Of a DNA stretch of 64,000 bases, positions 21,371 through 32,276 are shown piece after piece. Position 1 is the first letter of the stretch. Each line of letters begins with the position of its first letter. A program made the position numbers and the translations under genes. A model generated the notes under the pieces. It worked only from the letters and a program-made list of their open reading frames with translations, ran no database searches and was not told the origin of the DNA. The stretch comes from Terriglobales bacterium. Lineage in GTDB: Bacteria > Acidobacteriota > Terriglobia > Terriglobales > SCQP01. The stretch spans positions 68,209-132,208 of the forward strand of contig DATNFK010000009.1 in NCBI GenBank assembly GCA_035606395.1, written 5' to 3'.

Positions 21371-22863
21371 CGCGAGTGGCGCCGCGTCCAGGCGCATGAC
21401 GGCGCCGGGAAGTCCTCGCGAAAGTGCGCTCCCCGGCTTTCGTGCCGCGCGGCCGCCGCTCTCACGACGGCTTGCGCCGTAGTGAGAGCGAGGCTCGAGC
21501 CGGGGGCCGCGAGCCGCTCCAGTTGGCTGGCCGCCGCGGCCAGGCCCGCGCCGTTGCGCACCACGCCCGCACCCTCGCTCATGGCGGTGCGCAGTTCGTC
21601 CATAGGCGTTTCACTTGCCTCAGCCAGGGCGGCGTTCACGCCCGCGCCCGATGACGGCTGGGATCGAGCCGCGCCGGCCATGGCGCGCCCGGCGCGGGCG
21701 CCGAACACCAGACCCTCGAGCAGGGAATTGCTGGCCAGCCGATTGGCGCCGTGGACGCCGGTACAGGCGCACTCGCCGGCGGCATACAATCCCGCCATCG
21801 TGGTGGCGCCATCGAGGCCGGTGGCAATGCCGCCCATGGCGTAATGTGCCGCCGGACGCACCGGAACCACGTCGTCGGCCAGCCGCAACCCGTACTCGCC
21901 GAGTACGCGCGTGATCCGCGGGAAATGCCGTTCTAGTTGTTCCCGCCCCAGGCCGGTCGCGTCCAGGTAGCAGGCGGCGCCGGTGCGCCGGATTTCGCTC
22001 TCGACCGCGCGCGCCACCACATCGCGCGGCGCCAGCTCGGCCGCCGGATGCGCGGCCAGCATGAACCTCTCGCCCTTGGCGTTGCGCAGCACCGCGCCTT
22101 CGCCGCGCAGCGCCTCGGACAGCAAAAATCGCGGCGCCCCGGCGAGCGCCAGCGCGGTGGGATGAAACTGCACGAACTCCATGTCGCGCAACTCGGCGCC
22201 GGCGCGGTAGGCGAGGCCGGGGCCGTCGCCGGTGGCGACGCTCGGGTTGGTGGTGTCGCGATAAAGCTGCCCCAAGCCGCCCGTGGCGACCAGCACCGCC
22301 CGCGCCCGCGCGTGCCGCACCGCGCCCGCGCCGTCGCGGTACAACAAGCCTCCTGCCGCTCCGTCGTCGACCACCAGGGCAAGTGCCTCGCAGTGCGGAC
22401 GCCATTCGAGCCCCCCTAATTTTTCCGCCTGCCGGCTGAGGGTGGCCGCGATTTCGCGTCCGGTCGAGTCGCCGTGGGCGTGCAGGATGCGGCGGCGCGA
22501 GTGCGCCGCCTCCTGGGTGCGGGCCAGCTCGCCCGCGGGCCCGCGGTCAAACTCCGCCCCCCAGGCCAGCAGTTCCTCGAGCGCCCGGCCGCCTGAGCGC
22601 ACCAGCACCTCGACCGCGGGCGCGTGACACAATCCGTCACCGGCGGCGATGGTGTCGGCGGCATGCAGGGCCTCGCTGTCGTCGGCGCTGGTCACCACGG
22701 CAATGCCCCCCTGCGCGTACTCGGTGGCGGATTCGGCGCGCGCATCCTTGGCCAGCATCAAGGTGCGCGCCTCATGGGGAAGCTCGAGCGCCGCCCGCAG
22801 CCCGGCAATGCCGGCGCCGATGATGATGAAATCGAAGTTCTCCGATGGTTCGCGCGAAGGCAT
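21280..22863 (-). CDS. nadB: L-aspartate oxidase
   Basis: The ATG at 22863 gives MPSREPSENFDFIIIGAGIAGLRAAL, followed by a FAD-binding flavoprotein core. The track ORF start at 23283 is a spurious extension. Confidence 0.9.
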   Translation of the reverse strand: MPSREPSENFDFIIIGAGIAGLRAALELPHEARTLMLAKDARAESATEYAQGGIAVVTSADDSEALHAADTIAAGDGLCHAPAVEVLVRSGGRALEELLAWGAEFDRGPAGELARTQEAAHSRRRILHAHGDSTGREIAATLSRQAEKLGGLEWRPHCEALALVVDDGAAGGLLYRDGAGAVRHARARAVLVATGGLGQLYRDTTNPSVATGDGPGLAYRAGAELRDMEFVQFHPTALALAGAPRFLLSEALRGEGAVLRNAKGERFMLAAHPAAELAPRDVVARAVESEIRRTGAACYLDATGLGREQLERHFPRITRVLGEYGLRLADDVVPVRPAAHYAMGGIATGLDGATTMAGLYAAGECACTGVHGANRLASNSLLEGLVFGARAGRAMAGAARSQPSSGAGVNAALAEASETPMDELRTAMSEGAGVVRNGAGLAAAASQLERLAAPGSSLALTTAQAVVRAAAARHESRGAHFREDFPAPSCAWTRRHSRQRLGAGVDFVEMKGSPVSGGPPGVSESSG

Positions 22864-22905
22864 TGAATCCCAGGGCCCAATGTTTAAATTACACTGGAAG
22901 CCACC

Positions 22906-23982
22906 GTGCCGCGCATCAGCCAACCATTGCCAACTCCCCCGCCAGCGACCCTGGTGGCCGTGATCGAGCCCGGGCTGCTGGGGCGCGTCGCCGAGTTCCT
23001 GCCTGCCGGCGGTGCGCTGTTCGTGGTTACAACCGAGCCTGTGCGAAGGCACTGGGGAGCGACGCTCGAACGCGGGCTGGCGGGGCGGGCCGGGGCTCAC
23101 CTCCTCGAACTTCCCGACGGCGAACCGCACAAGCGGCTGGCGTCGGTCGAGTCGCTCGCCAACCAGATGCTCGAGCGCGGCGCCGATCGCGCCGCCACCA
23201 TTGTCGCCTTCGGCGGCGGTGTGGTCGGCGACGTTGCCGCCTTTCTTGCCTCGATCTATATGCGCGGCATTGGCCTCGTGCAAATTCCAACCACGCTGGT
23301 CGCCATGCTCGATTCCGCGCTGGGGGGCAAGACCGGTGTCAATCTGGCCGGCGGCAAGAATCTATTGGGAACATTTCACCATCCCCGGCAAATTTTGGTG
23401 GACCCGCTGCTGCTCAACACTTTGCCCGAGCGCGAGTACCGCTCCGGCCTCGCCGAGGCGATTAAGTACGGCATTATCGGCGACCCGGAACTTTTTCAAT
23501 ACATGGCCGCGAATGTTGCCGCGCTGCGCCAGCGCGAGCCCGGTGTATTGGAGCGCGTCATCGCCGCCGGGCTGCGGCAAAAAGCGACGGTGGTCGCCGC
23601 CGATGAGCGCGAAGGCGACCTGCGGCGCATTCTCAACTTCGGCCACACGCTTGGCCACGCGCTGGAGAGCGCCACCGAGTATCGCCATTTCCTCCACGGC
23701 GAGGCGGTGGCCTGGGGCATGATCGCAGCCACCGGCATCGCGCTCCGCCTCGGGCGCGTGAACGAGGCGGAAGCCGAACGGGTGCGGCGCACGATCCTCG
23801 CCTTGTGCGCTCCGCTGCCCGCGGTTACGATCGCCCCGGAACGCGTTCTGGCCTGCGCCGCGAGCGACAAGAAGGCTCACGCCGGGCGGCTCCATTTCGT
23901 CCTGCCGCGGGCGATTGGGCAGGTCGAGATCACGAGCGAGGTTCCCGTGGAGACGATTCTGGCGGCTCTGGCCGAGCTCTAG
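22906..23982 (+). CDS. aroB: 3-dehydroquinate synthase
   Basis: Carries GGGVVGDVAAFLASIYMRGIGLVQIPTTLVAMLDSALGGKTGVN. The start is GTG. Confidence 0.9.
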   Translation: MPRISQPLPTPPPATLVAVIEPGLLGRVAEFLPAGGALFVVTTEPVRRHWGATLERGLAGRAGAHLLELPDGEPHKRLASVESLANQMLERGADRAATIVAFGGGVVGDVAAFLASIYMRGIGLVQIPTTLVAMLDSALGGKTGVNLAGGKNLLGTFHHPRQILVDPLLLNTLPEREYRSGLAEAIKYGIIGDPELFQYMAANVAALRQREPGVLERVIAAGLRQKATVVAADEREGDLRRILNFGHTLGHALESATEYRHFLHGEAVAWGMIAATGIALRLGRVNEAEAERVRRTILALCAPLPAVTIAPERVLACAASDKKAHAGRLHFVLPRAIGQVEITSEVPVETILAALAEL

Positions 23983-23990
23983 TTCTCGAG

Positions 23991-24070
23991 GCCGGATTGG
24001 GCTCAGGGTCCCCCTTCCTGCGCCGCGCCTAAGCGGGTCGCGCGGCGACAGCCGCGCCGCGGCCCGCGCC
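23991..24070. repeat. REP-like element, copy D (hairpin 2 GCGCGGC-gaca-GCCGCGC; hairpin 1 degenerate)
   Basis: CTAAGCGGGTCGCGCGGCGACAGCCGCGCCGCGGCCCGCGCC aligns with copy C. It overlaps the 3' end of the 24029..25561 ORF. Confidence 0.65.
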
Positions 24071-25561
24071 CGTCAATCTATACACGATCTGGATGCCGTG
24101 GCGCCAGTCTTCGTTAATGCCAATGCGCGTCCACTCGATCTCGGGCCCGAGCCAGGCGGTGACCGTCTCCGTGTGCGGGTGCCAGCGCAGCGCCGGGGCG
24201 ACCATCCACAATCGGGGCGGCAGCGCGCTCAGCTCGACCCCGGGAAAGTAGCCCAGGCGCTCGAAGTCGCCCGCGAGTTGATGGCGCCGGACTAGGAGCC
24301 AGTAATCAAGCGCTTGCAGCGGAAAGCCCAGATCCTCGTCCGCCTTCAATTCCACCACCGTGAGCCGGCCGTCATGGTCGACCAGTAGCAAGTCCATCAC
24401 GTCGCGCTCCTGCGGGCGGCACGCCGGCACCTGGCGATAGACCCAGCGCCGGTCGATAGTGGCCGCCAGTACCGTGGGGTCGCTGTGGATGAGGTGCTCC
24501 ATCCACGCTTCGGGCTGAATGCGGAACAGCCAGTCGCCGCGCCTGCCGCCGGCCACGCGCTGCGCGGCCAACTCGGCGAGCAACGCCAGAAATTGCGGCC
24601 GGGTTGACTCCAACAGCGGCGTTTGCTCGCGTCCGTAGCCAAAACTGTGGCGGGCGATCAGGCCCTCGGCGGGGCTCGTCTCGCGCGCGATCTCGAGTCC
24701 GTAGACGCGGTACAGGCGGCGTCCGTCGAGGCCGCGTTCCACCGTCGCCTGGGGACAGCGTTCGCGAATTTCGCGGAGTAGTTCGTCCTCAGCCTCGGCG
24801 GCGGGAGCCGGCCACGGTGCCGGCGCCCGCCGCAAGCGGGCCTCGAGGTTGCCCTTGTTCTCGCCCCCCCATTCGGCGCGGTTGAGTTGCCCGGCCGAAC
24901 GATCCAGCCAGAAACACTCGATGGCCGGCGCGTCGCCGGGCGGCGCCAGCCCCGCGCGCTGCTGCGCCACCAAACGCTCGGCGCCGGGCGGCAGCACCAG
25001 GCGCAGCTCGGCCACATGGCCGCGCGGCCAGCGCTGGCGCGCCTGCTCGGCCAGCACCAGCGCTTGCGCCAGGATGCCGGCCGCCGTTCCCTCGTCGATC
25101 GCTACGCAGACGACGAGCGCGTGTTGTTTGCGCAGCACCAGGCGCAGCCAGGGCGAAGCCGCCTGCGGGGTGCGCGGCATGGGGACGAGTTGCCAGCCCG
25201 GCCAATCGCGCCCGATGGCCGCAAGCAGCGCCTGGCGGAACTCGGCCCGGGCCCCGCTGGAGGGGTCGCCCGCCGCGCACAGAACCAGGGCCTGAGGCTG
25301 GCGCTGGCCCATGCGCAAACACTCGAGCCGCAGGCGGTTGCCGCTTTGGGCTTTCCAGCCCACAATGCGGCGCACGAGATTGGCGTGGGGCGACCAGAAG
25401 TGGCAGACCAGTTGGGCGCCGAGGGTGATCGAGTATCCCGAGGTCTCCGCCTCCAGGCGTGCCACGCGCGCGCCCGCTTCCCACAGCTCAACCGCCGGCT
25501 GGCTGCCGAGGAAGGCGCGCACCGCCGCCGCCGCCGCGGAGGCATCAAATTCGGCAGGCAT
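24029..25561 (-). CDS. uncharacterised protein with C-terminal NucS/RecB-type PD-(D/E)xK nuclease core and ~380-aa unassigned N-terminal region
   Basis: 510 aa. The motif DLLLVDHDGRLTVVELK-x9-QALDY (D-x13-ExK then Q-x3-Y) lies at about 24300-24394. I recognised no other family signature. Confidence 0.6.
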   Translation of the reverse strand: MPAEFDASAAAAAVRAFLGSQPAVELWEAGARVARLEAETSGYSITLGAQLVCHFWSPHANLVRRIVGWKAQSGNRLRLECLRMGQRQPQALVLCAAGDPSSGARAEFRQALLAAIGRDWPGWQLVPMPRTPQAASPWLRLVLRKQHALVVCVAIDEGTAAGILAQALVLAEQARQRWPRGHVAELRLVLPPGAERLVAQQRAGLAPPGDAPAIECFWLDRSAGQLNRAEWGGENKGNLEARLRRAPAPWPAPAAEAEDELLREIRERCPQATVERGLDGRRLYRVYGLEIARETSPAEGLIARHSFGYGREQTPLLESTRPQFLALLAELAAQRVAGGRRGDWLFRIQPEAWMEHLIHSDPTVLAATIDRRWVYRQVPACRPQERDVMDLLLVDHDGRLTVVELKADEDLGFPLQALDYWLLVRRHQLAGDFERLGYFPGVELSALPPRLWMVAPALRWHPHTETVTAWLGPEIEWTRIGINEDWRHGIQIVYRLTGAGRGAAVAARPA

Positions 25562-25603
25562 CGCTTCAGCCTACCTGCGACCCGGTGGGAGACGCATCCC
25601 CCC

Positions 25604-25627
25604 AAACGCGGGTTAAAACGCGGGTTA
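25604..25627. repeat. perfect tandem 12-mer AAACGCGGGTTA x2 in a divergent promoter region
   Basis: Read directly from the sequence. It lies 43-66 nt upstream of the nuclease-gene ATG (minus strand) and 59-82 nt upstream of the small ORF at 25686. Confidence 0.7.
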
Positions 25628-25685
25628 AAAAATCGATGCAACTAACGCCCGGAAGGCCGCATCGAATCGGACGGGGAGAAGCGCA

Positions 25686-25925
25686 ATGCCGTTTTCCATT
25701 TGGGGCTGCCCACACTCGCATCTCAGTTTTCCCATCGTGACCCACGATCAGGTGACCGAGCCCAAGCTGACGAAGGAGCAGAGCCACGGCGAGCGCCGCC
25801 CCCGGCCCCACGTAACCTGCCTCGACTGCGGACGCGAATTCTGGTACGACTGGGTCCGCATGCGCCGGCTCGATGAGCGCCCCCAGACCGCTATCCCCGC
25901 CGTTTCTCCCCGCCGCGCCGCTTGA
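25686..25925 (+). CDS. small hypothetical protein, possible zinc ribbon (CPHSH ... CLDCG)
   Basis: 79 aa. A strong RBS (GGGGAGAAG) lies 4-5 nt before the ATG, and third positions are G/C-rich. Confidence 0.5.
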   Translation: MPFSIWGCPHSHLSFPIVTHDQVTEPKLTKEQSHGERRPRPHVTCLDCGREFWYDWVRMRRLDERPQTAIPAVSPRRAA

Positions 25926-26126
25926 GGAGAGTGCCACAGGCGAGCCTCTGCGCCCCTGCGAACGACGCTCGATCAAAAGCACTAGTAGCCGCGAGATAAG
26001 CACCATAGGAAGCGGTGCTGGTGGCTGCATGGTCCTACCTGTTGGGCCGTTGACGGGGCTCAAGAGGTCGTCCTAAGCTAGGCTTGCAGGCGAATAAAAA
26101 GCGAAATGTGAGTGCCTGCTTCGGCC

Positions 26127-26819
26127 ATGAAATCAGCTCTGGAAAATCTGCTTGCATCGCGCGGTTTTGGCCCCACGCTGGCTGCCTGGCAGGCCGCGCC
26201 GGAGGCGCCGTCGGAGATGGCATCGCAGCTTCGGCCCGGCACGGTGAGTGAATTGGTGCCTGATCGGGAAGCCGAGGCGGCCGGCGGTGGCGTGACCAGC
26301 CGCGCGCTGCAACTGGCGGCTGCGGCGCCAGGGCCAGTGGCATGGCTCGATCCCCAGGACAGCTTCGACCCCGCTTCCGCCGCCCGCGCCGGGGTGGCGC
26401 TCGAGCGGCTGCTCTGGGTGCGGGGTGGCCAGGCGCCGGCGGCGCTCGAGGCCGCGCAGCTCATCCTCCATGCCGGTCGTTTCGCGCTGGTGGTGGTGGA
26501 TTTTCTCGATCTGCCTTCGGCCGCGCTGCGGATTCCGCGGGCCGCCTGGTTCCGGCTGCTGCGCACGCTGGAGCGCGAACGCCGGGCCTCGCTACTGGTG
26601 CTGGCGCCGCGGCCGCTGGCCGGCTCCTGCGCCGATCAGGTGATCGCTTGCTCCTACCAGTCGGTCGAGTGGCGGGGCTCGTCGTACGCGCTGTTCGATC
26701 GCGCCCGGCTGGGTTTCCGGCTGGTCACCAGCCGGCGCGCGCCGTCCTCTGTCGCTCAGGCGCCGGGCAAGCGGCCGGTGGACGCGGTGGGGCCGGTGGA
26801 TCGGGAGTTCGTCGCGTGA
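26127..26819 (+). CDS. imuA: ImuA (RecA/SulA-like component of the ImuA-ImuB-DnaE2 mutasome)
   Basis: Carries VSELV, GGGVTSRALQLAAAA, VAWLDPQDSFDPASAARAGVALERLLWVRG and GRFALVVVDF, and has the typical position before imuB. The start is the ATG at 26127 or the GTG at 26112. Confidence 0.75.
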   Translation: MKSALENLLASRGFGPTLAAWQAAPEAPSEMASQLRPGTVSELVPDREAEAAGGGVTSRALQLAAAAPGPVAWLDPQDSFDPASAARAGVALERLLWVRGGQAPAALEAAQLILHAGRFALVVVDFLDLPSAALRIPRAAWFRLLRTLERERRASLLVLAPRPLAGSCADQVIACSYQSVEWRGSSYALFDRARLGFRLVTSRRAPSSVAQAPGKRPVDAVGPVDREFVA

Positions 26820-28405
26820 GCCACTTTATTGCCGCATGGCTGCCGGTGTTTTCACTGCAAGCCGCCGCTGGGAGTTTGCCCCTGTCACCCACAGTTGTGA
26901 GCGAGCGCGACGGTCCGCTGGATCTGGTGGTCGCCGCCAACAGCGCCGCGCGCCGGGCGGAAATTCATCCGGCGATGTCGGTGTCGCAAGCCCTGGGGCG
27001 GTGTGCGACACTCCTCGTTCTCGTGCGCAATACCGAGGCCGAGGCGCAACTCGCCGCGCGGCTGCTGGCCGAGGCCGATCATATTTCGCCGCGCCTTCAG
27101 GCCGTGGGTCCCGATCTGGTACTGTTGGATTTCGCCGGGCTCGAGCGTCTGCACGGTTCGGCCGCGGCGGCCGCCGCGCGGCTCGCGCGCGCGCTGGGCG
27201 GAACGCAGGCAGCCACCGAGTCCTCCAGCGGAGGAGATCAAGGTCAACCGTCGCGGAATGCTGAAGAGTGGCTTGCTGCCGGGAAACAAATTCCGCCTAG
27301 CCTCTTTACGCTGCAGACCGGGATTGCCGCGCACCCCGCCATGGCCCTCATTGCCGCCAAGTGCGGGTTGGGTCTAGTCGCCGCGGGCGGCGAGGCGGCG
27401 GCGCTCGATCGCCTGCCGGTGGACCTGCTCGCCGATCTCAACGAACTCACCCGCGCTTTTATGGATGCGGGGCAGGTTGCCGAAGTGCTGGCGCTGCTGC
27501 ATCGCTGGGGCATCCAAACCATGGGCGCGCTGGCACGATTGCCGCGGGCGCAGCTCGCGGCCCGCCTGGGTTCGACCGGCGTGCAACTGCAAGCCATCGC
27601 GCGCGGCGAAGCGCTGGGAATTTTGCAGGCCGCCGGCGTGGCCGAGTCTTGCCTGGAGCGCACAATCGCCTTCGACCCTCCCAGCAGCGATCTCGAAATC
27701 ATCAAGCTAGCCGTTACCCAGGCAGCCGGATCGCTTGCGCCCGAGCTGGAAAAGCACGACCGCGTTATAGACCGGTGCCAAATCGGGCTCAGTTTGGAGA
27801 ACGACCCGCAACCGCGGCTCTATGTCCGCGCCTTTGCCCTGCCCACGCGCGATGCCGCCATGATCGCCGCCCAACTTCAGCTCGCGCTCGAACATCAACC
27901 GCCGTCACGCCCGGTGCACTCGCTGGCGCTGCGCTGCAACGTGGTGCATCCGCGACGGGTGCAGGCGCCGCTTTTCGCCGCCGCCCGGCCCGACCCGGGG
28001 AAGCTGCCAAAGCTGCTGGCGCGTCTGGGCGAAATGTTTGGTCCGGAATGGGTCGGCTCGCCCCGGCTGGTGGATTCGCATCGCCCGGGAGCTTTTGCGC
28101 CGCAGCCGTTCACCCTGCCCGATGAGCTGGAAGCGCCCGCCGTCGCGCCGCCGGTGGCGAGGCTGGCGCTCCGCGCCTTCCGTCCGCCGCGGGTGATGGA
28201 GGGCTCCGAGCTTCGTCTGTTGCGCCGGGCCGGACCATGGCGCAGCCAGGGCGGATGGTGGCGGGAGAAGGGCGACGCGCAGCGCTGGGCCGAGGATGAA
28301 TGGGATGCGGAGATTTGTTTGGATGGCGAATCGCGCCCCGCCTGGTACCGCCTGGCGCGCGATCTCACCACCCAGCGGTACTATCTGCTTGGCCGGTACG
28401 ATTGA
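26816..28405 (+). CDS. imuB: ImuB (catalytically inactive Y-family polymerase-like)
   Basis: The GTG at 26816 overlaps the imuA stop (GTGA). The product begins VSHFIAAWLPVFSLQAA and has Y-family-like N-terminal architecture. The track ORF start at 26342 lies inside imuA. Confidence 0.8.
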   Translation: MSHFIAAWLPVFSLQAAAGSLPLSPTVVSERDGPLDLVVAANSAARRAEIHPAMSVSQALGRCATLLVLVRNTEAEAQLAARLLAEADHISPRLQAVGPDLVLLDFAGLERLHGSAAAAAARLARALGGTQAATESSSGGDQGQPSRNAEEWLAAGKQIPPSLFTLQTGIAAHPAMALIAAKCGLGLVAAGGEAAALDRLPVDLLADLNELTRAFMDAGQVAEVLALLHRWGIQTMGALARLPRAQLAARLGSTGVQLQAIARGEALGILQAAGVAESCLERTIAFDPPSSDLEIIKLAVTQAAGSLAPELEKHDRVIDRCQIGLSLENDPQPRLYVRAFALPTRDAAMIAAQLQLALEHQPPSRPVHSLALRCNVVHPRRVQAPLFAAARPDPGKLPKLLARLGEMFGPEWVGSPRLVDSHRPGAFAPQPFTLPDELEAPAVAPPVARLALRAFRPPRVMEGSELRLLRRAGPWRSQGGWWREKGDAQRWAEDEWDAEICLDGESRPAWYRLARDLTTQRYYLLGRYD

Positions 28406-28420
28406 CGTAAGGACAGCATT

Positions 28421-29086
28421 ATGTGCGGACGCTTTACACTCACCAAACCTCCCGACATCATCACACAGCACTTTGGCCTGGCGGGCCACGGCGGTATGGA
28501 CGCGCTGTGCATGCCGCGCTACAACATTGCGCCCACGCAGACCATCTTCGCGCTGCGCCACATCGAGGGCCGCCGCGAGTTGATTCCGGCGCGCTGGGGA
28601 TTGATTCCAGCCTGGGCGAAGAACGCAAACGCGCCTCTCATCAACGCGCGCGCCGACACGCTGGCGCTGAAGCCGTCGTTCCGTGAGGCGTTTCGCCAGC
28701 GGCGCTGCCTTATTCCCGCCGATGGATTTTATGAATGGCAGCCGGCGGGGAAGCGCAAGCAGCCGTGGTTTATTTCGCTGGTCAACCAGGAGGTGTTCGC
28801 GTTTGCCGGGCTGTGGGAAGCGTGGCGCGCACCGGATGGAACGCTTACGCCCACCTGCGCCATCATCACCACCACACCCAATGAACGCCTGGCCTCGATT
28901 CACGATCGCATGCCGGCGATTATTCCTCCCGCCGCCTACGACGAGTGGCTCGTGGGCGACAATCCGGCGGCGCTGCTTGCGCCCTATCCGGCCGAAGCGT
29001 TTCAGTTGCATCCGGTGGCGGCCACGGTTTCCAGTCCGCGTAACGATTCCCCCGAGTGCAATCAAGCCGTTGCATTAACGCCGTAG
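28421..29086 (+). CDS. SOS-response-associated peptidase (SRAP/YedK/HMCES family, abasic-site sensor)
   Basis: The product begins MCGRF (catalytic Cys2) and carries YNIAPTQ, ARWGLIPAW and ADGFYEW. The RBS AAGGA is present. Confidence 0.9.
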   Translation: MCGRFTLTKPPDIITQHFGLAGHGGMDALCMPRYNIAPTQTIFALRHIEGRRELIPARWGLIPAWAKNANAPLINARADTLALKPSFREAFRQRRCLIPADGFYEWQPAGKRKQPWFISLVNQEVFAFAGLWEAWRAPDGTLTPTCAIITTTPNERLASIHDRMPAIIPPAAYDEWLVGDNPAALLAPYPAEAFQLHPVAATVSSPRNDSPECNQAVALTP

Positions 29087-29093
29087 TTGTTTC

Positions 29094-32000
29094 ATGTACG
29101 CTGAACTCCGAGCCCGGAGCGCTTTTAGTTTTCTCGAAGGCGCGAGCCTGCCTGAAACACTGGCCGAGACGGCGGCCGAGCTGGGGATCCCCGCCGTGGC
29201 GCTGAGCGATGGCGCCGGGGTGTACGGCGCCCCGCGCTTCCATAAGGCAATGCGCCAGCAGGGCCTGCAGCCGATCATTGGCGCCGAGATTCCGCTCCAT
29301 GACGGCGCGCGCTTGCCGCTGCTGGTCGAGACGCGCGAGGGTTACCGCAATCTTTGCAGGCTGCTGAGCCGCATGCATTTGCGCGCGCCGAAGGGCGAGG
29401 GACGCTGCCGCCTCGAGGAACTCGCCGAGTTTGCGCCTGGCCTGGTTGCGCTCACCGGGGGCGAGAGCGGGCCGCTGCCGGCCGCGCTGAGCCGGGGTGA
29501 GGCGCGCCGCCTTCTTGACGGCTTACTGGGCGCGTTTGGCCGCGAAAATGTTTTTATCGAGATCTCGCGTCACCACCGCCAGGAACAGGAGAGGTTCAAC
29601 CTTGCCTCGATTGAATTGGCCGACGCGCTGCGCCTGCCGCTCCTCGCGACCAACGCCGTCACCTATGCCACCGCCGAAGCGCGGCCGGTGGCTGACGTGT
29701 TCGCATGCCTGCGGCATCACGTCCGTCTCGACGCCGCCGGACGCAAGCTCGAGGCCAACGCCGAACGGCGCTTGAAGTCGCCGGCGGCCATGGCGCAACT
29801 GTTTCGTGATCGTCCCGACGCCATCGCTCACAGCGGTGAACTCGCGGCGCGGCTGAAGTTCCAGCTCGACGCGCTGGGCTATGCGTTTCCGCGTCCGCCA
29901 GTGCCCGAGGGGGAGACGCCGGCGAGTATGCTGCGCCGTCTGACCGAAGCCGGCGCGGCGCGGCGGTACGGCTTCACCAGTCCCTTGGCGCGGCGCGCGC
30001 GGCGGCAAATCGAACGTGAGTTGGGGCTGATTGAAAAGCTTGGGCTCGAGGGCTATTTCCTCATCGTGCGCGATATTGTCGAATTTTGCCGCGAGGAGGG
30101 CATTCTCGCCCAGGGGCGCGGCTCGGCCGCCAACAGCGCCGTCTGCTACAGCCTCCATATCACCGCCGTGGACCCGGTGGGTATGGAGCTGCTCTTCGAG
30201 CGTTTTCTCTCCGAGCAGCGCGGTGAGTGGCCCGACATTGACATTGATTTGCCCAGCGGCGACCGCCGCGAGCGCGTCATTCAGCATCTGTACCAGCGCT
30301 ACGGCAAGCATGGCGCCGCCATGACCGCCAATGTCATCACCTACCGCGGCCGGAGCGCGGCGCGCGAAGTGGGAAAGGTGCTGGATTTCCCCGACGCCAT
30401 GATCGGGCGGCTGATCCAGGCGATCGCCGCCGCGCGGCCGCCGGAGCCACAGGACGTGGTCGAACATGGCGGCGCTCCCCCGGGTTGGGATCCCGCTCCC
30501 GCCGAGCGGCCCACCCTGCATGAATCCCTGCGGCGCGCCGGCTTCGACGCCGCCCATCCCCGGCTGCGGCATTTTCTCCATCTGTGCCGCGCCCTGCAGG
30601 ATTTGCCCCGGCACCTGGGGCAGCACTCCGGCGGTATGGTGCTTTCCGATGAGCCGCTCGACGGCGTGGTGCCGCTTGAGAACGCCTCGATGCCGGGACG
30701 CGTGGTCGTGCAGTGGGACAAGGACGACTGCGCGCAGCTCGGCATTATCAAGGTTGATCTGCTCGGCCTGGGCATGATGGCCGTGCTGCAAGACTCCCTG
30801 CGCATGCTGCATCCCCATGTCGCCGAGAACGCGCCCGAGGCGCTCGACCTGGCCCAGTTTCCACCCGACGACCCGAAGGTCTATCGCATGCTGTGCGAGG
30901 CCGACACGATCGGCGTTTTTCAGGTCGAGAGCCGCGCCCAGATGGCGACGTTGCCGCGGCTGCGTCCGCAACGATTTTATGACTTGGTGGTCGAGGTGGG
31001 GCTGATTCGCCCCGGGCCGGTGGCGGGCAACATGGTCAATCCGTATCTGGAGCGCCGCGCCGGGCGCCAGCCCATCACCTATCCGCACCCCGCGCTCGAG
31101 CCCATTCTCAAACGCACCCTGGGCGTGCCCCTGTTTCAGGAGCAGCTGTTGCGCATGGCCATGGTGGCGGCCGGCTTCACCGGCGGCGAGGCCGAGGAAC
31201 TGCGCCGCGCCTTCGGGTTCAAGCGCGCCGAAGCCAAGATGAGCGTGGTCGAGACCAAGCTCCGCGCCGGCATGGCGCAGCGCGGGATTACAGGCGAGGC
31301 GGCCGAAGCCATCATCGGGTTCGTTACCTCGTTTGCGCTTTATGGATTTCCCGAATCGCACGCCGCGAGTTTTGCGCTGCTGGTTTATGCATCGGCGTAC
31401 CTAAAGGCGCATTATTCAGCCGAGTTCTACGCTGCGCTGCTGAACAACCAGCCGATGGGCTTTTACTCCCCTTCCACCCTGGTGCAGGATGCGGTGCGGC
31501 ATCACGTGACGGTTTTGCCGATCGCCGTTGCGGAATCGGATTGGGATTGCACGCTCCCCCAGCCGCGGCCCGCGCTGCCGGCGTTTCGTTTGGGGCTGCG
31601 CATGGTTTCAGGCTTGCCGCAAGCGGTCGCCCAGGAGATTGTCGCGGCGCGACGGCTCGCGCCTTTCGTTTCGCTCGACGACCTGCGCCGCCGCACCGGG
31701 CTGGGAAAAAGCGATGCCCGGCTGCTGGCCTCGCTGGGGGCGCTGCCGTTTCATCCCTCGCGCCGCGATGCGCTGTGGCAGGTCGAGCGTGCCTGGCGGC
31801 CGCCCGGGAGTTTATATGAAGAGGACACGCCTGAGCCCGCCCGCACGGGGCCGCTGCCGGAGATGACGCCGGAAGAAAAAATGCTGGCCGATTTTCGAGG
31901 CTCGTCGCTCACCCTGGGCCCGCATCCGTTTGCCCTGCGCCGCCAGGAACTCGAGCGTCAGGGTGTGCGCACGGCGGCTGAAATCCGCCGCCTGCCATCC

Positions 32001-32276
32001 GGCCGGCGCGTGCGCGTGGCAGGCATGGTGCTGGCGCGGCAGCGGCCCGGCACCGCCAAGGGGATTGTTTTCATCAGCCTCGAGGACGAAAGCGGGATCG
32101 TCAACATCATCGTCCCCAGCGCCACCTTTGAAGCGCAGCGCCTGGTGATCGTCTCCGAGCCGGCGCTGTTCATCGAGGGCACGCTGCAGAATCGTGATGG
32201 CATTGTCCACGTCAAGGGCGAGAATTTTCTGCCGCTCGCCTCGGCCCTGCTCATCCCCTCCTACGACTTCCATTAG
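29094..32276 (+). CDS. dnaE2: error-prone DNA polymerase III alpha-like DnaE2 (ImuC)
   Basis: 1060 aa starting MYAELRARSAFSFLEGAS (PHP domain), with a pol III alpha core and an OB fold. It follows imuA-imuB. Confidence 0.95.
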   Translation: MYAELRARSAFSFLEGASLPETLAETAAELGIPAVALSDGAGVYGAPRFHKAMRQQGLQPIIGAEIPLHDGARLPLLVETREGYRNLCRLLSRMHLRAPKGEGRCRLEELAEFAPGLVALTGGESGPLPAALSRGEARRLLDGLLGAFGRENVFIEISRHHRQEQERFNLASIELADALRLPLLATNAVTYATAEARPVADVFACLRHHVRLDAAGRKLEANAERRLKSPAAMAQLFRDRPDAIAHSGELAARLKFQLDALGYAFPRPPVPEGETPASMLRRLTEAGAARRYGFTSPLARRARRQIERELGLIEKLGLEGYFLIVRDIVEFCREEGILAQGRGSAANSAVCYSLHITAVDPVGMELLFERFLSEQRGEWPDIDIDLPSGDRRERVIQHLYQRYGKHGAAMTANVITYRGRSAAREVGKVLDFPDAMIGRLIQAIAAARPPEPQDVVEHGGAPPGWDPAPAERPTLHESLRRAGFDAAHPRLRHFLHLCRALQDLPRHLGQHSGGMVLSDEPLDGVVPLENASMPGRVVVQWDKDDCAQLGIIKVDLLGLGMMAVLQDSLRMLHPHVAENAPEALDLAQFPPDDPKVYRMLCEADTIGVFQVESRAQMATLPRLRPQRFYDLVVEVGLIRPGPVAGNMVNPYLERRAGRQPITYPHPALEPILKRTLGVPLFQEQLLRMAMVAAGFTGGEAEELRRAFGFKRAEAKMSVVETKLRAGMAQRGITGEAAEAIIGFVTSFALYGFPESHAASFALLVYASAYLKAHYSAEFYAALLNNQPMGFYSPSTLVQDAVRHHVTVLPIAVAESDWDCTLPQPRPALPAFRLGLRMVSGLPQAVAQEIVAARRLAPFVSLDDLRRRTGLGKSDARLLASLGALPFHPSRRDALWQVERAWRPPGSLYEEDTPEPARTGPLPEMTPEEKMLADFRGSSLTLGPHPFALRRQELERQGVRTAAEIRRLPSGRRVRVAGMVLARQRPGTAKGIVFISLEDESGIVNIIVPSATFEAQRLVIVSEPALFIEGTLQNRDGIVHVKGENFLPLASALLIPSYDFH

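Follow-up and report, generated by a model that had tools for sequence, protein, structure and literature searches.

A widespread, uncharacterized four-domain protein family of Terriglobia in the NucS-related branch of PD-(D/E)xK nucleases

The closest described counterparts of the protein reported here are the NucS/EndoMS endonucleases (PF21003 plus PF01939; structures 2VLD, 5GKE, and 5GKJ), which are two-domain proteins of ~250 amino acids (aa) (range, 230 to 260 aa). In a survey by Castaneda-Garcia et al. (PMC5290159), NucS or NucS-like proteins were found in Bacteria only among Actinobacteria and Deinococcus-Thermus and otherwise in Archaea. The same survey recorded NucS together with MutS/MutL in Deinococcus and haloarchaea and scored Koribacter, Solibacter, Acidobacterium capsulatum, Terriglobus, and Granulicella as "noNucS, MutS+MutL identified" (PMC5290159). 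Other described systems with comparable nuclease domains are Shedu SduA (DUF4263, PF14082; 8PS4/8PS5), the CARF nucleases Card1 and Can2 (6WXW, 8Q3Y), and the MmcB-like proteins (PF06319). MmcB itself is an SOS-regulated PD-(D/E)xK nuclease of Caulobacter that has been proposed to act with translesion synthesis (TLS) polymerases (PMC9578287). Here we analyze a 510-aa protein encoded in a 64,000-nucleotide (nt) stretch of a Terriglobales genome (contig DATNFK010000009.1, positions 68,209 to 132,208; referred to below as the window) and describe the family to which it belongs.

The gene is monocistronic, as an initial annotation of the window had stated. It is convergent with aroB (22906 to 23982, + strand) and divergent, across a gap of 124 nt, from zn79, a 79-aa Cys/His open reading frame (ORF). 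Feature coordinates are given in Table 1; residue numbers count Met1 as 1, and the 40-sequence alignment and full-length model described below start after Met1. The C-terminal part of the protein contains the peptide DLLLVDHDGRLTVVELKADEDLGFPLQALDY (aa 390 to 420), in which the initial annotation had recognized a PD-(D/E)xK signature of the NucS/RecB flavor. The spacing of this motif is exact (D390-x13-E404-x-K406, then Q416-x3-Y420). Residues E351, D390, E404, K406, Q416, and Y420 are each 97 to 99% conserved in 257 homologues, and the motif is therefore not a chance occurrence. The helix that leads into it, QPEAWMEHLIHSDPTVL (aa 349 to 365, with WVYRQVP at aa 373 to 379), aligns with the lead-in helix of NucS, which bears out a resemblance that had been noted earlier.

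A full-length AlphaFold2 (AF2) model was built from the 40-sequence alignment (predicted local distance difference test [pLDDT] score of 88.5; predicted template modeling score of 0.84). In this model, the catalytic residues sit on an alpha-beta-beta-beta-alpha-beta nuclease core, and the elements that define the PD-(D/E)xK superfamily, namely, the core fold, the D...(D/E)xK motif, and an upstream acidic residue (E351), are all present. When the model was searched against the Protein Data Bank (PDB) with Foldseek, the top match was EndoMS/NucS (5gkj_B; E value of 7.8e-6), and 2vld and 5gke were also recovered. Card1 came next (6wxw and 6xl1; E value of 1.7e-4), Can2 was also among the matches, and E. 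coli Shedu SduA followed (8ps5; E value of 2.4e-3 over 146 columns). Structure prediction and fold comparison thus recovered the nuclease fold that had been proposed from the motif, over a C-terminal region of ~160 aa (domain 4, aa 341 to 500).

We compared domain 4 with a NucS profile of 109 sequences, which comprised nucS genes annotated on plasmids of Deinococcus and haloarchaea and a further 103 NucS sequences of the Deinococcus type. HHalign returned a probability of 93.4% (P value of 2.5e-7), compared to 0.1% for the reversed control, and a relaxed alignment extended through QxxxY and the LVAPAL/ILAAPSIT strand. The two families share the motif order E...D-x13-ExK...QxxxY...(L/I)-V/A-A-P. 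A search of all PDB sequences with a hidden Markov model (HMM) of the family matched only NucS 2vld and Card1 6wxw; both matches were subsignificant, and both aligned on an E...Y..VP...D...D.G.L.V.ELK motif. In a Pfam scan of the 40 alignment members, only subthreshold matches were obtained, to MmcB-like (PF06319; 5 of 40 members; best E value, 0.0053), PDDEXK_2, NucS_C (PF01939; 4 of 40 members; best E value, 0.019), and PDDEXK_1. By contrast, PF01939 was detected in all listed bona fide NucS proteins (n = 120), and PF21003 was detected in all but two shorter ones. On these comparisons, aa 341 to 500 form a NucS_C-type PD-(D/E)xK nuclease domain with intact and conserved catalytic residues. 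Since domain 4 is homologous to NucS_C by profile and yet has no match at threshold, it represents a related family rather than a member of the curated one. A Cas4/AddB-type Fe-S RecB nuclease was also considered and was excluded because that type requires four conserved cysteines, and no cysteine is found among the conserved positions of the 257 sequences.

The family is coherent, very widespread in the Acidobacteriota, uncharacterized, and outside every curated family. The window protein had no Pfam match even at an E value of ≤10 (hence none to PF01939 or PF14082, for which the initial annotation had proposed a search), no NCBIfam match, and no PHROG match, and phmmer against PDB sequences retrieved nothing relevant. 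A word-indexed protein search returned 148 clusters of homologues of ~470 to 580 aa each, and an exhaustive search returned 2,646 cluster representatives at an E value of ≤1e-3 and 742 at ≤1e-30. The homologues are full-length proteins, not fragments (family length range, 470 to 600 aa), and are annotated throughout as "hypothetical protein." Among the matches listed, the family occurs in more than 600 species-representative genomes, nearly all of them Terriglobia, with Terriglobales, Acidobacteriaceae, Korobacteraceae, Bryobacteraceae, and Solibacter represented. A protein identical to the window copy is present in a Terriglobales metagenome-assembled genome. The whole architecture of ~500 aa, including the N-terminal region, is conserved family-wide. 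These data define a new four-domain family in the NucS-related branch of PD-(D/E)xK nucleases. Terriglobia rank among the most abundant bacteria of soils, and a ~500-aa protein conserved in hundreds of their species has been without a name, a Pfam or NCBIfam model, or a literature; our literature search found no NucS-like protein in Acidobacteria and no report of such a four-domain architecture.

Since hosts of this family were scored as lacking NucS and possessing MutS and MutL, the family was missed by HMM surveys and occurs alongside canonical mismatch repair; a NucS_C-related nuclease is thus present lineage-wide in Acidobacteriota beside MutS/MutL, where surveys had reported none (PMC5290159). 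One explanation is that the protein is a true equivalent of NucS/EndoMS, a mismatch-specific endonuclease serving noncanonical mismatch repair in Terriglobia. The homology of its C-terminal domain with NucS_C, the NucS-like shape predicted for its N-terminal module (see below), and the coexistence of NucS with MutS/MutL in Deinococcus and haloarchaea (PMC5290159) would fit this explanation. However, the cultured Acidobacteria that have MutS and MutL were scored as without NucS, and neither NucS_N nor NucS_C is matched at the Pfam threshold, unlike in bona fide NucS. The protein is also twice as long as NucS, with four domains rather than two and one live active site, so a monomer would not be expected to make the symmetric double-strand cut of a NucS dimer. 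Finally, the C-terminal clamp-binding motif (PIP-like or QxSLF-like) that activates NucS was found in 1 of 257 family termini, compared to 2 of 6 fetched NucS proteins (both from Deinococcus); the family tail after the last conserved Arg has a median length of 7 aa, while Deinococcus NucS ends in QPSLFD. We consider a true NucS equivalent to be quite unlikely.

The N-terminal two-thirds of the protein was divided into domains 1 to 3 (Table 1). The initial annotation had described the first ~380 aa as novel and as matching nothing. This description stands for sequence methods, since no match was found in Pfam, NCBIfam, PHROGs, or PDB sequences, but not for predicted structure. When aa 1 to 340 were modeled without the nuclease domain (pLDDT of 85.6), Foldseek again returned NucS as the best match (5gkj_B; E value of 4.1e-5, probability of 1.00, 230 columns of 229), together with 2vld chains A and B (E value of 1.8e-4). 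Restriction-endonuclease-like folds were also matched (African swine fever virus RPB5, probability of 0.99; PaqCI, 0.82), as were, more weakly, PH/PTB-like and RanBD barrels. The N terminus is thus not novel in fold; the prediction is a module shaped like NucS but catalytically dead. The predicted fold of domain 1 resembles the barrel at the N terminus of NucS or a PH/PTB-like barrel, and aa 1 to 235 are predicted to be collinear with a full NucS protomer, with the barrel first and the nuclease fold second, as in NucS.

Residue conservation in the 257 sequences suits such a module. In domain 1, G30, W56, R64, and R105 are conserved, and R118 is also conserved nearby. In domain 2, R140, position 170 (W in 96%), R175, P191, and position 201 (R in 88%) are conserved, and no conserved D/E/K catalytic triad was found. 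Conserved Arg and Trp residues without a triad suit a module that would bind nucleic acid and be catalytically dead, and domain 2 is presumed from the model to be a nuclease fold of this kind. In domain 3, G288-L289-E290, G308, and R335 are conserved; this domain had no significant HHalign match.

Several results weigh against the NucS-like interpretation of the N terminus. The likeness of aa 1 to 235 to NucS comes from Foldseek comparison of an AF2 model, in which template modeling scores were low (0.29 to 0.31) because the domain orientations differ from those of NucS. HHalign of domains 1 to 3 against the NucS profile performed no better than reversed controls, and the same was true of HHalign between the N-terminal domains and domains 3 and 4. 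Comparisons designed to reveal an internal duplication (N-terminal half with C-terminal half, domain 2 with domain 4, and domain 1 with domain 3) gave probabilities of <1%, whether the alignment of 40 or that of 257 sequences was used. A NucS-shaped N terminus and any internal duplication are therefore predictions from structure rather than demonstrated homology, and the idea of a pseudodimer rests on a single structural method.

With these points in mind, the interpretation that we favor, and to which we give roughly even chances, is that the protein is a housekeeping DNA endonuclease of Terriglobia, passed on by vertical descent and specific for particular structures or lesions. It would be NucS-like, with an N-terminal recognition module that is dead and a single live nuclease at the C terminus; it would be clamp independent and unrelated to the imu genes that lie near it in the window. 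A DNA structure or lesion would be recognized and positioned by the dead NucS-like module together with the small connector domain, and the single live nuclease domain would then cleave in a Mg2+-dependent manner. With a dead recognition module and a single live domain, one polypeptide would thus act as an asymmetric NucS-like dimer and would probably cut one strand per protomer. It would work without the sliding-clamp tether that NucS needs, and it would act beside canonical MutS/MutL, not in their place, and independently of imuA-imuB-dnaE2. We infer DNA as the substrate, single-strand cutting as the activity, and repair or recombination as the role.

A more specific version of this proposal, possible but doubtful in our judgment, is that two NucS-like units are covalently fused in it as an asymmetric pseudodimer. 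An ancient duplication of a barrel-plus-nuclease unit would have yielded one dead copy that recognizes DNA and one live copy, and the product would serve as a clamp-independent, strand-specific nicking endonuclease, directed at lesions or structures, in a previously unrecognized, lineage-core genome maintenance pathway of Terriglobia, parallel to MutS/MutL. In XPF-ERCC1, Mus81-Eme1, the tandem-repeat archaeal tRNA-splicing endonuclease, and RecC, a dead nuclease copy or domain is kept for substrate recognition. By analogy, a dead nuclease-fold copy may here be the recognition partner of one live copy; those proteins belong to different families, however, and the copies here would be fused in one chain, with a duplication that has no sequence support. 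If the live/dead tandem is real, it would be a compact bacterial counterpart of asymmetric pairs such as XPF-ERCC1 and a candidate for an uncharacterized DNA repair or recombination activity. If the pseudodimer is real, NucS-type repair enzymes would extend to a major soil phylum reported to be without them.

Table 1. Coordinates of the nuclease gene, its encoded domains and motifs, and neighboring features in the window and in related loci (L numbers)
Feature	Position	Strand	Description
Nuclease gene	24029..25561	-	510 codons; ATG 25561-25559, stop 24031-24029; complete ORF
Domain 1, aa 1-120	25202..25561	-	Helix, seven-stranded beta-barrel, long helix (AF2)
Domain 2, aa 121-235	24857..25201	-	Restriction-endonuclease-like alpha/beta; beta-beta-beta-alpha-beta-alpha-beta unit (AF2)
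Linker, aa 233-250	Before domain 3	-	Low model confidence
Domain 3, aa 251-340	24542..24811	-	Five strands between two short helices and a long helix; either a connector or another small barrel
Domain 4, aa 341-500	24062..24541	-	Predicted active-type PD-(D/E)xK nuclease; NucS_C homologue by HHalign, profile search, and Foldseek
Upstream acidic residue E351	24509-24511	-	Codon position
Catalytic motif D390-x13-E404-x-K406...Q416-x3-Y420	24302..24394	-	Encoded segment
Divergent intergenic region, 124 nt	25562..25685	.	Between nuclease gene and zn79
zn79	25686-25925	+	79-aa Cys/His ORF; no Pfam match
Mutasome cassette imuA-imuB-SRAP-dnaE2	26112-32276	+	SRAP (YedK-like abasic-site crosslinking peptidase) between imuB and dnaE2
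zn79 homologues	L001 8719-8931, L005 4430-4648, L021 6739-6918, L088 8687-8926	- (all four)	
UvrC-related gene (~420 aa), downstream	L020, L022, L036, L038, L043, L046, L047, L050, L056, L062, L064, L066, L074, L078		
UvrC-related gene (~420 aa), upstream	L042, L045, L053, L059, L072, L079, L084		
PIN module	L001 11568-12460, L090 11564-12462, L091 9666-10564		

The Card1 and Can2 matches raise a different explanation, namely, that the protein is a nuclease activated by a ligand or signal, or directed by RNA, with N-terminal domains that bind a small molecule or RNA. Its nuclease domain resembles that of Card1 and Can2 in fold and in sequence profile, where Card1 was one of the two PDB sequence matches. 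The matches to Card1, Can2, and SduA were, however, gone from the model of aa 1 to 340; the Card1 and Can2 matches thus map to domain 4 only. The family has no CARF or Rossmann-like domain, and no clustered regularly interspaced short palindromic repeat (CRISPR) genes, cyclic oligonucleotide-based antiphage signaling system (CBASS) genes, or cyclase genes were found near family loci, so that the cyclic-oligoadenylate context of Card1 and Can2 is lacking. The conserved N-terminal residues are Arg and Trp, which are typical of nucleic acid binding. A signal-activated nuclease of this type is highly improbable.

The initial annotation had also raised the possibility of a Shedu-like defense protein with a variable sensor at its N terminus. 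On this explanation, which would equally cover the candidate systems in PADLOC, a single gene would encode an antiphage nuclease in which an N-terminal sensor gates the C-terminal nuclease. The gene is monocistronic, and a large N-terminal region precedes a C-terminal nuclease domain that matches SduA in fold (see above), as in SduA, where a PD-(D/E)xK domain of the NucS-like subgroup stands at the C terminus of a larger single-gene protein. PADLOC searches also gave weak matches to candidate systems PDC-S11 and PDC-S18 (best E value of 1.6e-5, to PDC-S11), confined to aa 348 to 424. This segment is the generic catalytic motif, which stands at the N terminus of the PDC-S11 and PDC-S18 profiles, so the architecture differs. 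Neither Pfam nor PADLOC gave a Shedu or DUF4263 match, even at an E value of ≤10. Conservation extends through the N-terminal region family-wide, whereas this region is variable in Shedu, and the distribution is lineage-wide with housekeeping synteny rather than patchy and in defense islands. A viral fold library gave matches at the nuclease domain level only; no full-length viral relatives were found, and PHROGs gave no match. A Shedu-like defense role is unlikely.

On the far side of zn79 from the nuclease gene, the window carries, in this order, the RecA-like imuA, the IMS-domain imuB, SRAP, and a dnaE2-type polymerase gene. The initial annotation had therefore also entertained a mutasome-linked nuclease. 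Such a damage nuclease would make substrates (e.g., from cross-links) for ImuA-ImuB-DnaE2 translesion synthesis, in the manner proposed for MmcB, which is a precedent for such cooperation between a nuclease and TLS polymerases (PMC9578287). Besides the adjacency itself, the subthreshold MmcB-like matches reported above and matches to MmcB-family folds in the viral library (probability of 0.96 to 0.98) speak for this explanation. MmcB-like proteins are, however, small (~150 to 180 aa) and single-domain, and MmcB is SOS regulated, whereas the family protein has 510 aa in the window and matches the MmcB-like model only below threshold.

The genomic context weighs against this explanation. In tblastn searches with ImuA, ImuB, SRAP, and DnaE2 of the window, none of these was found in 84 other family loci over flanks of ±8 to 10 kb, and the cassette adjoins the nuclease gene only in the window and in an 87%-identical relative (L085). 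Relatives at 46 to 47% identity keep the downstream synteny aroB-nadB-tatC-S41 protease-HPPK-ruvB; the persistence of aroB-nadB synteny down to 46% identity fits vertical descent. On the divergent side, the same relatives carry genes for an extracytoplasmic function (ECF) sigma factor, a zf-HC2 anti-sigma factor, and a zn79 homologue, followed by recG. With the ECF sigma operon and recG in the same slot at 46 to 47% identity, the imuA-imuB-SRAP-dnaE2 cassette looks like a recent local insertion or replacement.

The layout of the 124-nt divergent region, which the initial annotation had described as a control region shared with the genes leading toward imuA, was confirmed, but shared control was not. 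imuA (26112/26127 to 26819, + strand) has its own promoter-like sequence, TTGACG (26050 to 26055), N18, and TAAGCT (26074 to 26079), which is conserved in the close relative. After TAAGCT, at 26092 to 26106, there is a direct repeat, GAAT-N7-GAAA (GAAC-N7-GAAA in L085), that resembles an Alphaproteobacteria-type LexA box. Boxes of this type have the sequence GTTC-N7-GTTC. The title of Mazon et al. (2006), as cited in PMC3323433, attributes such a box to Acidobacterium capsulatum. This LexA-like repeat suggests that the imu cassette has an SOS operator of its own. No LexA-type box was found in the 124-nt region upstream of the nuclease gene, and GTTC-N7-GTTC, GAAC-N7-GAAC, GAAC-N4-GTTC, and CTGT-N8-ACAG were found in 0 of 82 family upstream regions. 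With a separate control region at imuA and no box upstream of the nuclease gene, the idea of a shared mutasome control region fails. A functional link to the mutasome is not supported: the adjacency appears to be a local accident, the unconserved linkage largely refutes this explanation, and we regard it as very unlikely. For annotation, the adjoining imuA-imuB-dnaE2 cassette, which looks like a recent local insertion, is no guide to the function of the nuclease.

Neighbors of the nuclease gene across the family are housekeeping in type (aroB, nadB, tatC, TldD/PmbA, and DinB_2), with no fixed operon partner. In Acidobacteriaceae, the divergent neighbor is a TldD/PmbA pair (59 of 85 loci), and DinB_2 at times lies directly upstream. 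Of 85 loci, 21 have a UvrC-related gene (UVR motif; UvrC_M in L003) no more than 6 kb away; in ~14 of these loci it lies immediately downstream in convergent orientation, and a gene for a DnaC/IstB-like AAA+ loader often comes next. Together with recG and ruvB, which lie near the nuclease gene in the clade of the window, the UvrC-related gene is a weak hint of a role in DNA metabolism, as the favored reading of a genome maintenance endonuclease would have it. Against this, a convergent UvrC-like neighbor cannot be cotranscribed with the nuclease gene, and its recurrence may be plain synteny.

Several further features of these loci were recorded. In related loci, zn79 is the last gene of the ECF sigma/zf-HC2 anti-sigma operon that diverges from the nuclease gene; the window lacks the sigma and anti-sigma genes and has the imu cassette after zn79 instead. 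The order imuA-imuB-SRAP-dnaE2 also occurs in loci L086 and L087. The G+C content is 0.67 to 0.70 over window positions 22001 to 30000, compared to ~0.58 to 0.66 elsewhere in the window, and the raised stretch spans aroB, the nuclease gene, and imuA/imuB, extending beyond the imu cassette alone. Relatives at 46 to 47% identity carry, between the nuclease gene and aroB, a two-gene module encoding a 157- to 159-aa protein and a PIN-domain protein, likely a toxin-antitoxin pair, which is absent from the window. On a haloarchaeal megaplasmid of Natrinema thermotolerans (CP031304.1; L095), nucS (DUF91) lies ~400 bp from a convergent mutS, an instance in which NucS and MutS are neighbors.

A scan of window positions 23800 to 26200 for sigma-70 promoters and intrinsic terminators found none. 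The upstream region of the nuclease gene in the window contains a perfect 12-bp tandem duplication (ACGCGGGTTAAA twice, at 25606 to 25629). This duplication is absent from the 87%-identical L085 and thus probably arose by recent slippage rather than serving as a conserved operator. The element nATTATC(A/C)CA(C/T)A, which may represent a -10/transcription start site region, is found in 47 of the 82 upstream regions of family genes (L006 to L043 and others), ~65 to 105 nt before the start codon; the upstream region in the window is without it. In one Acidobacteriaceae subclade, this element is directly followed by the palindrome CACAG-N3-CTGTG, and another subclade carries TCACAGAC at approximately -27.

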